A stretch of DNA of 64,000 bases from the NCBI GenBank assembly GCA_951406725.2, contig OX597823.1, forward strand, positions 84,382,001 to 84,446,000, read 5' to 3'. Below are positions 1,700 to 43,844 of the stretch, piece after piece. This DNA is from Octopus vulgaris. Taxonomy: Eukaryota. The position numbers and the translations under genes were made by a program. Each line of letters opens with the position of its first letter. The first letter of the stretch is position 1. The notes under the pieces were generated by a model, which was not told the origin of the DNA, searched no databases, and was given only the letters and a program-made list of their open reading frames with translations.

Positions 1700-2845
1700 T
1701 AGATTAGTTTCGGCCATTATTGGCCCAGGTCATGATTACCTCAATAGCACCACCTGGAAAAGACTTTTAGTTAATTATTTCGGGACACCATGGCCCACTC
1801 GAGCAGAGAGTTGTTGTTGATTGAGACGTATCCAGGCGTGGTGGTCTATCCGGTATTTCTTGCAATTTGTGCGGTCTTTTTCTACTTTAATTTCTTTTGG
1901 GATAACATTGAAAAGTGCAGGGCCGTTTGCAGAGAAGAAATTGTATCGCAATGTTCTTATGTGAGGTGATCTCGACCTTTGTAGGGGACGCATTGCACGG
2001 GGGCTTAGTCTTGGGTGAACTGTAAACATAATACCAATATCGTTTGGATAATATTGGTGGAATATTTTCCACATGGTGCAAATAATGTATCGCTCACGGC
2101 GGCATTGCAGAGAATAGAGCTTCAGCTGTTTAAGTCGAGCCCAATAATCAAGTCCCATCATGCCATTTATTTTTCTTTTGTGATTGATCTTTGTGGCGCT
2201 TCGATCCTCATTATGTCTTCTTTTTTAGGGGGCGGGGATAATGGGCAGCAGTAGTCGAGGTGGGGCGAATCCCATCTATTGGATTTTCCTGTATCCGAAG
2301 AAGAGTGTCTGCTCGAAGCGTTAAACCATCTTTCTTCCGTTTCCTGAGCACCTGCGAATACATTACATGTACCACGTCCTCGCATTGTTGTGTTTTTCGC
2401 GTTTGTTCTTCTCGGGGCGTAGCGAATGTGGAAAAAAGATAGATGATGGTTTCATGATCTCTAGATTGGAAAGTTCTGAGGATCGATGAACACATTCTGC
2501 GGGCAACATCGACCTTTTTGTTGATGTACACACTCCAACTAAAGTCGCTGTCGACAGTTACACCTAAGTCTCTGATATTATCCGACGGTTCAAGTAGGTC
2601 TCCCGACGGTAGTGTATATGGTTGTTTGACTGTGCTCTGTCTTCCAAAGTGGATAAGCTCAATGTTTTCTTTGTTCAACCTCTTATTGTTTTTTATTCTT
2701 TGTGCCCACTGGGTTTACTGCATATAGGTCTGATTGAAGCATTGTTCGATCATACGCTCCCTTAATAACTTTCTGGAGCTTAGAGTCATCTGCGAATGTT
2801 TTTATGGTGCCATGTTCAATGCAATCTGCAATGTCATTGATATAG
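1700..2845 (-). mobile_element. CR1-like LINE 3' fragment (degenerate RT and C-terminus)
   Basis: FADD near 2790, IRDLGVTVD...W..YINK, PHLDYC, IEAPQRSITK, LKQLKLYSLQCRRER. Frameshifted and interrupted at 2268-2413. Confidence 0.85.
2268..2413 (+). mobile_element. 146-bp HHR-like unit inserted in the LINE, with a 6-bp TSD
   Basis: GGGGCG duplicated at 2262-2267 and 2414-2419. Contains CCGAAGA-A-GAGT..GCTC-GAAG. Homologous to 6070-6256 and 42080-42280. Confidence 0.7.
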
Positions 2846-3288
2846 ACTAATATATAGTATATATATGTATATGTTTATGCACATATATATGCGTGCATAT
2901 AAGAATGTGTGTGCGTAAATGTGAGTGGGCATTCGCTTTGCACGTGTATATCCATTCAACCACACACACGCATACACACTCTCACTCTCTCTTCTTCCCT
3001 CCGTCTAACTAAAAGTATTAGACACTCACAACTGTTGTCGAAATAACTTCATTCTCGCCATGTTTCTTTTAGATTTATTGCAACATATTAGCTAAAATTA
3101 ATTTGGAAGAGCTACAACAATAACAGCCTAACAACAACATTCAACACGACAAAGACCATATCGTTATATATCTTTATACAGATGCGTATTTACTAACGCT
3201 TCAGTTTAAAGATACAGTTTTATTCTTGTGACAAATAACTGGAGCTATCATTGAACATTTCAATGTACAACGTAGATACAAATATGTA

Positions 3289-8079: not shown

Positions 8080-8153
<74 letters not shown>

Positions 8154-8154
8154 A

Positions 8155-8435
8155 CAATAATGATATCAGGGTAAAATTAATTAATAAATATCTTTTTAAT
8201 TAATTTTACAAAGTAGTTCAGTACGTTAAAATAACCTTTTTAGGTAAAATTATATAAATATTTTATAATTATAGACATAATTTTAATCAGCGGTCAGCTA
8301 ATTGTTTCGCCACGCACCGAATTTAGAAATAGGAGTTAGAAAAGGCATTTTAACTCCTATTCTAAATTCGGTGCGTAGTGAAGCAATTAGCTGCCCCCTG
8401 ATTACAATTATATTTATAATTATAGAATATTTGTA
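8155..8435. repeat. Inverted-arm repeat related to 571-766
   Basis: Arms 8256-8338 and 8351-8432. Shares the GGGTAAAATTAATTAAT...CCGAATTTAGAAATAG layout with the first element. Confidence 0.75.
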
Positions 8436-8604
8436 AATATATATATATATATATATATAAATAGATGAGTGTATTTTCTGTTTGCTACTTATGACGTTAT
8501 ATCATATAACGTTTTTTTAAACAATATTAATAGAGTTCTGTCTATCGCTATACAAATCCATCATTTTTTGCTAAAATGTCTTATTGACGAGATTCGTTTT
8601 TTTC

Positions 8605-8690
8605 ACTTTCCTGAGGAGAAGATTGCATTGTTTATCCCATTTATTCTTTTGAATAGTATCAGTGGAATTTTCGAAACATGTGTCGAAAGT
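8605..8690 (+). ncRNA. Type I hammerhead ribozyme
   Basis: ACTTTC-CTGAGGA-GAAGATTGCATTG...CAGTGGAATTTTC-GAAA-CATGTG-TC-GAAAGT. Perfect 6-bp stem I, long stem II, GUC cleavage triplet ending at C8684. Confidence 0.85.
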
Positions 8691-8737
8691 AAAAATATTT
8701 TATTACACCTGCGTTAACTCAATTTTTTTATTCATAT

Positions 8738-8769
<32 letters not shown>

Positions 8770-42979: not shown

Positions 42980-43771
42980 ATATTATATAGAGGGTACTAT
43001 TAGTCATAGGGACTTGCGAAATCACAGGTAATTTGTAACTAAATTCTGTTTTTAAATGACTTGCTTTGAAGTTTTGCATTCGGTACAATTTGTTTATTTT
43101 AGTAGTTTTGACTGCAAAAGTCCCTGCTAGCGTGCGGTACCTATGAATAATAGTACCCTCTAGATAATATAAATAAATATTTTCAAAGTGGAAAAATTTA
43201 CAGATTTTTTCTCTTACGAGGTTTTTCACGCTATCTACTGACAATTTCTTATAAAGATTTTATCCTTAATTTTAAATTTATATTTTTCACCGGAATAGTT
43301 CAATACTGAATTTTTGTTCCGAGTAGGCAAGTTGTTACCGAAATGCATTGCGAATAAGCCCGCCATTTTCATACATATGTAAAGGTAAACATTCGTACAT
43401 GCTGCGGCGAATTCTACGGTTGGCTGTCGGGTTTGTAATGTTGTGTTTTTTCTTATATGTCTTGAGTTCGTTGCACTGAAGAGCATAGAATGCATATTCT
43501 GCATTGATTGCGAAATCACAAGTGATTTGTAACTAAATTCTGTTTTTAAATGACTTACTTTGAAGTTTTGCATTCGGTACAATTTGTTCATTTTAGTAGT
43601 TTTGACTGCAAAAGTCCCTCCTAGCGTGCGGTACCTATGAATAATAGTACCCTCTATATAATATAAATAAATATTTTCAAAGTGGAAAAATTTACAGATT
43701 TTTTCTCTTACGAGGGTTTTCACGCTAACTACTGATAATTTCTTATAAAGATTTTATCCTTAATTTTAAAT
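42980..43771 (+). mobile_element. Partial tandem (494-bp period) with hammerhead ribozyme and short inverted leader: PLE pseudo-LTR or retrozyme-like element
   Basis: 43015-43277 is repeated at 43509-43771. 42980-43010 is the reverse complement of an internal segment. Flanked by (TA)n. Confidence 0.8.
43470..43533 (+). ncRNA. Type I hammerhead ribozyme
   Basis: GTTGCA-CTGAAGA-GCA...TGC-GAAA-TCAC-AA-GTGA-T-T-TGTAAC. All three stems and both core boxes present. AUU cleavage triplet ending at 43527. Confidence 0.85.
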
Positions 43772-43773
43772 AA

Positions 43774-43844
<71 letters not shown>

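Follow-up and report, generated by a model that had tools for sequence, protein, structure and literature searches.

The hammerhead at 8605-8690 on the forward strand of the window (the 64,000-nt stretch of Octopus vulgaris contig OX597823.1 analysed here) belongs to a Hydra-type Penelope-like element (PLE), in whose terminal repeat (pLTR) it lies, and the covarying domain II of this hammerhead is about twice as long as the longest example among the published Hydra hammerheads compared here. Hammerheads in PLE terminal repeats were already known. A preliminary description of the window had suggested that the motif was of PLE type, which is borne out by the repeat in which it is located. The ribozyme probably acts as a slow, dimer- or protein-assisted pLTR hammerhead that trims tandem transcripts, in which the long arm would be stabilizing or protein-binding.

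Structure of the hammerhead and anatomy of its insertion

The sequence at 8605-8690 contains all of the features of a type I hammerhead, i.e. the CUGANGA and GAAA boxes, the A15.1-U16.1 pair, an NUH triplet, and three stems with stem I open. Stem I is formed by ACTTTC (8605-8610) and GAAAGT (8685-8690), which pair over 6 bp, and folding suggests a possible extension by five U-A pairs beyond a bulge. The core boxes are CUGAGGA (C3-A9; 8611-8617) in the window copy and GAAA (G12-A15.1; 8673-8676), the latter showing a single difference among 276 cells in 69 copies. C17 of the GUC triplet is located at 8684, and cleavage is predicted from the hammerhead consensus to occur 3' of this residue. Stem III (ACAUGUGU, 8676-8683) is self-complementary, and two hammerheads are predicted to pair through it over 8 bp. 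The 55-nt domain II (8618-8672) comprises a basal helix, a 3-nt bulge on the 5' side, a middle helix, and an apical hairpin. The basal helix, namely stem II (8618-8630 and 8660-8672), has 13 positions, including one G-G mismatch (8625/8665) and two G-U pairs. Stem I, both boxes, the GUC triplet, and the 13-position stem II with one mismatch are thus present as first described. The apical hairpin (8641-8656; 5-6 bp), identified by folding within the 29-nt 'loop II', is absent from the preliminary description, which also called the hammerhead intact; this holds for the core but not for domain II, where a change private to this copy (C8636) breaks the 4-bp middle helix.

A hammerhead descriptor (stem I, >=6; stem II, >=7; stem III, >=3) matched once in the real window and in none of 60 dinucleotide shuffles. 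The motif search that had been proposed as a check was therefore positive with the descriptor but not with the hammerhead models of Rfam: a local scan found no hammerhead and returned only snR75 (E 0.22), and a window-wide scan gave no hammerhead match at this position among the matches listed (150 of 404). The length of domain II is the likely reason why Rfam misses this hammerhead.

A further type I hammerhead with a domain II of about 55 nt (54-56 nt) and an ACGCGU palindrome is located at 856-939 on the reverse strand, and is probably the one to which the hammerhead at 8605-8690 had been called unrelated. In sequence this is correct, because the two share only the core in blastn (best E 0.013), but their architecture is the same, with a 55-nt domain II. 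The 856-939 family (1066 candidates, 40 scored) forms partial tandems of ~560 nt, as judged by eye, has no adjacent Hydra ORF in 20 loci, and may be retrozyme-like. A third hammerhead (43470-43533, forward strand), with a CUGAAGA core, a 29-nt domain II, and a 5-bp stem III, sits in a partial tandem with a ~494-nt period that ends on (TA)n (within ~43000-43780). A full-length U6 snRNA copy (101 bits) is present at 19417-19523 on the reverse strand, and a (GT)n tract is followed, from ~9385 onward on the forward strand, by what we take to be the start of a tRNA-like SINE head.

The TA tracts that had been noted on either side of the island were confirmed, the left one ending near 8459 and the right one beginning at 8738; the (TA)n target tracts were assigned to 8440-8455 and 8738-8756, respectively. 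Between them lie two arms. The forward arm (8475-8737) is a 5'-truncated pLTR that ends at the proximal 3' terminus, t1. The inverted short arm (8456-8477, reverse strand; 22 bp) corresponds to the distal 3' terminus, t2, since its reverse complement matches the tail of the full unit L031 (~3010-3031), and it joins the forward arm via a TTT microhomology (8475-8477). This two-armed layout is common in the family (L021, L029, L160, L163, L166, and L168). Among 30 ribozyme-bearing arms from 28 loci within L001-L030, the 3' end is located 52 nt past the cut in 15, 206 nt past the cut in 14, and runs on in one, and a TA run follows 28 of these 30 ends. The two 3' termini lie at 2877 and 3031 in L031, 154 nt apart. 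Another family of the genome, family T, appears to have a similar spacing of 3' termini. The neighbouring island at 8150-8440 contains 76-nt inverted arms and shares 78% identity over 189 nt with the 3' end of the 856-939 family; it is likely the fold-back end of a related element.

A tail delimited by two internal 3' termini is likewise found in PAc, a Poseidon element of Anolis carolinensis, which also has AT-rich targets, a hammerhead in its pLTR, and no sign of processed ends (PMC11167929). The two termini of PAc represent two internal start sites of the reverse transcriptase (RT) (PMC11167929). PAc belongs to a different clade, however, and differs from the octopus element in the length of the tail (30-40 bp versus 154 nt here) and in the start of the ORF, which lies within stem II in PAc and 257 nt past the cut here (PMC11167929).

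The island was initially regarded as an independent ribozyme-bearing family. It does belong to a repeat family of its own. However, its ~280 bp do not make up an element by themselves but represent the 3' end of an autonomous one, truncated on the 5' side and composed of two arms. That it represents a non-autonomous retrozyme or a SINE-like ribozyme family in its own right is highly improbable: the island is short, lacks an ORF, and has TA on both sides, and retrozymes have been proposed to derive from pLTRs (bioRxiv 10.64898/2026.07.22.740005), but the 5' ends of the family copies vary and run into the ORF, the same sequence flanks 778-aa ORFs, and neither a fixed short unit nor a short tandem array was found in L001-L030. 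The identification of the sequence as the pLTR of a 2.87-kb unit that bears an ORF largely refutes a non-LTR retrozyme. In itself, the window copy is an inert fragment, a passive relic of an older subfamily (the CUGAGGA branch).

The autonomous element and its place among Penelope-like elements

A search of the genome (2.8 Gb, 227 contigs) with the island gave 2156 first-look candidates, of which the 40 scored are 96-97% identical over the full arm. The family contains at least 981 exact copies of the hammerhead; two subfamily states of a 25-mer located in the 3' half of the ribozyme have 760 and 221 exact matches, respectively, in counts that tally ribozymes rather than insertions. The forward arm is 96% identical to both repeats of L031, in which one repeat (2611-3034) is followed by coding sequence and the repeat again, with a period of 2866 bp. 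The full unit is thus a ~2.87-kb partial tandem consisting of a pLTR, a 778-aa ORF, and a pLTR, and the 778-codon frame is free of stops at three places in the genome. An 83-codon open frame across the pLTR gave no useful Pfam match and was regarded as incidental.

The AlphaFold model of the 778-aa protein has a pLDDT of 87, and the top five Foldseek matches to it are all telomerase RTs (best E 4e-9). A single ORF with a telomerase-related RT, pLTRs arranged as partial tandems, inverted 5'-truncated arms, and a tail are all characteristic of PLEs. Motifs resembling those of GIY-YIG endonucleases (SIYQC...FYIGST) are also present, and Y661, Y674, G676, E744, and N757 are invariant in 79 relatives, with no Pfam match to this region; a putative GIY-YIG endonuclease is assigned from these motifs and the predicted secondary structure. 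Pfam searches with pieces of the ORF and with 11 aligned proteins detected neither an RT nor a GIY-YIG domain nor anything else of relevance, and a sequence search of PDB with the 79-row profile returned a single irrelevant match (E 0.32).

The Hydra motifs RW, DKT, DHK, YRDD, CxxC, and CxH match those of the Hydra-1_Obim protein in a comparison by eye. The DKT motif reads QSDKTGN, and DKT or DKS is present in 78 of the 79 relatives; CxxC (FCLLCNSEL) and CxH (YRCKH) flank a conserved E and N, and there is no internal CCHH. The octopus element shares with members of the Hydra clade, such as Hydra-1_Obim of Octopus bimaculoides, a unit shorter than 3 kb with a single ORF in which the RT precedes GIY-YIG (putative in the octopus protein), DKT and RW, the terminal CxxC and CxH, (TA)n targeting, and a type I hammerhead on the sense strand of the terminal repeat, in which stem III is short and palindromic (PMC8557442). 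The sequence of its hammerhead is unlike the one given for Hydra-1_Obim and therefore belongs to a different family.

Two motifs set the octopus family apart from the Hydra clade as described. The RWK position reads RIRWL, so that RW is retained and K is replaced, and the CxCX5C zinc finger of the linker is lost, every cysteine being replaced in the L105, L071, and L126 proteins. This linker motif is kept in four other families of the genome and was matched in 63 of the 79 relatives. Because of its loss, the family was filed as a Hydra-derived variant lineage rather than a typical member. A tree built quickly from 35 of these 79 proteins unites the three finger-less families of the genome in one clade (SH-aLRT 100), which is sister to a family with the finger and a 16-nt domain II; the assignment to Hydra follows the comparison with named references by eye. 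The linker zinc finger has been proposed to mediate (TA)n targeting; judging from the sequences, its loss together with persistent (TA)n insertion (the 28 arms mentioned above) argues against that motif being required for TA targeting. Domain II measures about 10, 12, 16, 51, and 55 nt among the Hydra-type families of the genome, including those represented by the pLTRs of L112, L135, L138, and L141. A coupling between a long domain II and loss of the finger was not borne out, since in the L143/L112 family a domain II of 51 nt goes together with a retained finger.

The 26 Hydra rows of File S2 of PMC8557442 have a stem II of 3-7 bp, a loop of 3-10 nt, and CUGA in every case. Domain II of these published rows measures about 26 nt or less, versus 55 nt here, and CCGA, a core state found in the octopus family, occurs in none of the 26. 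A long domain II has a precedent among PLEs in PLE-X1_sMoe of Selaginella, a non-canonical entry of the same file with ~53 nt between the core boxes; this plant element, however, is without an endonuclease, targets 28S rDNA, and has a stem III unlike that of the octopus family. In the part of the literature that was covered, no animal PLE with a domain II of 50 nt or more was found. Lunse et al. 2017 reportedly described dimeric PLE hammerheads, which may include long-stem variants.

Conservation of domain II and history of the core

Domain II alone is more stable than its shuffled versions (z -2.74; 2 of 200 as good); the whole 86-mer is no more stable than shuffles (z -0.65; 53 of 200 as good). 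When 8605-8690 was folded with its flanks, the minimum free energy structure was not a hammerhead, and in the five sequences folded, competing folds were more favourable than the monomeric hammerhead by 1.6-6.2 kcal/mol. Four of these five sequences, all but the window copy, fold into a basal helix followed by a short bulge on the 5' side and an upper arm. The computed energies of stem III dimer duplexes range from -6.0 to -10.3 kcal/mol.

Copies within the family are too similar to each other to judge selection on the fold. Sister families, with ~60% protein identity, were found by a protein search of the genome, and their pLTRs hold a hammerhead at the same place, again with a 55-nt domain II. 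The alignment of homologues that had been suggested for detecting covariation consists of 21 rows chosen from 46 distinct motifs. In this alignment, 90% of the cells pair and nine of the 23 pairs change on both sides, including seven of the 13 in stem II, with these changes stemming from about four related lineages only; slid partners give at most three. The invariance of the core is partly built in, as the rows were collected with the core pattern. Two of the six stem I pairs are changed on both sides across families; in families T and U, the outer part of stem I is weak. The pair scoring left out the apical hairpin, whose register varies from one family to another. RNAalifold independently predicted 11 stem II pairs, six of them with two-sided change. 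The count of two-sided pairs did not exceed that of a shuffle control (58/500). From these comparisons, the long domain II appears to be kept as a structure in active lineages.

The palindrome of stem III, pointed out in the preliminary description, is kept across families: its central dinucleotide is UG in nine, UA in eight, and CG in four of the 21 rows. That the centre is self-complementary in all 21 rows fits cleavage by dimers.

Exact 26-mers with the cores CUGAAGA, CUGAGGA, and CCGAAGA are present in 127, 281, and 481 copies, respectively. The outgroups carry CUGAAGA, and eight copies with CUGAAGA and GUC form the most diverged class, with 2.9% private differences versus 0.9, 1.2, and 0.34% in the other classes, in a sampling biased by the fact that most of the other rows are best matches. 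These two observations indicate that U4C, the change that gives CCGAAGA, is derived. The opposite reading, in which CUGAAGA arose by CpG decay of CCGAAGA, was rejected for most copies, because only two of 14 bear alleles of the CCGA lineage. In a tree of ORFs (n = 30), 10 copies with CCGAAGA and ACAUAUGUA, two of which are arms of one locus, group in a single clade (100/99) whose tips are mostly very short; L052 and L035 depart from the pattern. All three intact 778-codon frames carry CCGAAGA and fall in this short-tip clade. The U4C lineage thus kept amplifying and later acquired GUA, a stem III that is a perfect palindrome, and G10.1-U11.1.

The core change of the youngest copies is predicted to slow cutting. 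The identical change in a viroid is reported to lower activity considerably in vitro but to leave enough activity in vivo for infectivity (PMC3088659); there it is a variant of an RNA replicon, whereas in the octopus it is the core state found most often in a retroelement family that is amplifying. A second case of U4C in the genome was noted in L073 (reverse strand, ~435-540), a short TA-flanked element whose hammerhead has the core CCGAUGA and a domain II of 73 nt.

Cleavage and possible roles of the ribozyme

The hammerheads of metazoan PLEs cleave weakly and as dimers, and trimming of transcripts has been proposed as their role (PMC4209133). They share with the octopus family the location in the pLTR, occurrence mostly as single truncated copies, a large helix II, a palindromic helix III, and the predicted dimer (PMC4209133). 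Their helix II measures 6-8 bp, versus 12-13 bp plus an upper arm here, and the extra unpaired base that they have between A9 and G10.1 is not found in the octopus family (PMC4209133).

A cycle compatible with these features can be proposed. The GIY-YIG endonuclease would nick (TA)n, and the RT would prime at one of the two internal RNA sites and copy back through the ribozyme; priming from both nicked target strands, combined with truncation, would give the 280-bp two-armed island. At the RNA level, stem III is expected to be unable to close stably in one molecule, so that two hammerheads, either those of the two pLTRs of one transcript or those of two RNAs, would associate via the palindrome and cut tandem transcripts down to single units, with a slow cut predicted after C8684. 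The template that is copied would be mostly uncut or re-ligated. The long domain II would most likely be a stabilizing or protein-binding arm that replaces the usual contact between loop I and loop II.

If cleaved RNA served as the template, 5' junctions would be expected to accumulate at the cut site. A search with matched patterns, which detects some of the truncations only and has little statistical power, found five junctions there, compared with four at a control site located 19 nt upstream; each of the nine is an inversion junction, and microhomology was seen in some. Because there is no excess at the cut, the genome gives no sign of cleavage in vivo, a result compatible, as for the anole element, with templates that were left uncut or were ligated again. 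In that element, the hammerhead depends on protein and is not required for insertion in vitro (PMC11167929).

Such data may also be read in a way that assigns importance to the fold and little to catalysis, with domain II and the three-way junction forming a platform for binding or folding of the RT-endonuclease and cleavage decaying in the active lineage (U4C, G10.1-U11.1, and GUA). The alternatives considered here partly overlap with the best explanation, and we regard this one as possible but doubtful. It accommodates the derived status of U4C, its 481 exact copies, and its presence in all three intact-frame copies, as well as the reported reduction in vitro by U4C (PMC3088659), the lack of enrichment of junctions at the cut site, and the observation that catalytic mutants leave in vitro insertion unaffected in another PLE (PMC11167929). 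It is less easily reconciled with the remaining core positions and the NUH triplet, which are still canonical, with the fact that stem III became a perfect palindrome in the same U4C lineage, and with the activity in vivo that U4C retains in the viroid. In addition, the sister families keep U4 yet also show G-U and GUA, so these two states need not mean decay.

The position of the ribozyme in the tandem raises another option. The 5' end left by cleavage would lack a cap and lie 257 nt ahead of the ORF start, in which case the hammerhead could act in cap-independent translation of the ORF of the next unit. The ribozyme indeed lies in the 5' leader of the tandem, the region from the cut to the ORF start is free of AUGs in L031, and type I hammerheads in the 5' UTRs of fungal viruses support cap-independent translation (PMC13725137). 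We nevertheless consider such a role quite unlikely, given that the sister family T has two upstream AUGs in the same leader and that domain II stays on the 5' fragment once the RNA is cleaved. An AUG-free leader was also examined as a conserved feature and was discarded because of family T.

Slow, assisted trimming of tandem transcripts is thus the reading that we prefer, and several points follow for PLEs. Since Rfam misses the long-domain-II hammerhead at this locus, such ribozymes are probably under-counted. The octopus family provides a dated series of natural variants; its youngest lineage, the one with intact ORFs, bears the core change reported to slow cutting, which makes the series a ready test of the relation between cleavage rate and retrotransposition. 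Hammerheads are reported to be universal in elements of the Hydra clade, and the function of PLE hammerheads is stated to be unclear (PMC8557442). It is conceivable, if unlikely, that an octopus PLE lineage on the finger-less branch turned its hammerhead into a scaffold, with the 55-nt domain II bound by the RT-endonuclease and an active subfamily spreading while its catalysis was tuned down by U4C. If that were true, the series of CUGAAGA, CUGAGGA, and CCGAAGA ribozymes, together with the intact proteins, would make the purpose of PLE hammerheads directly testable.
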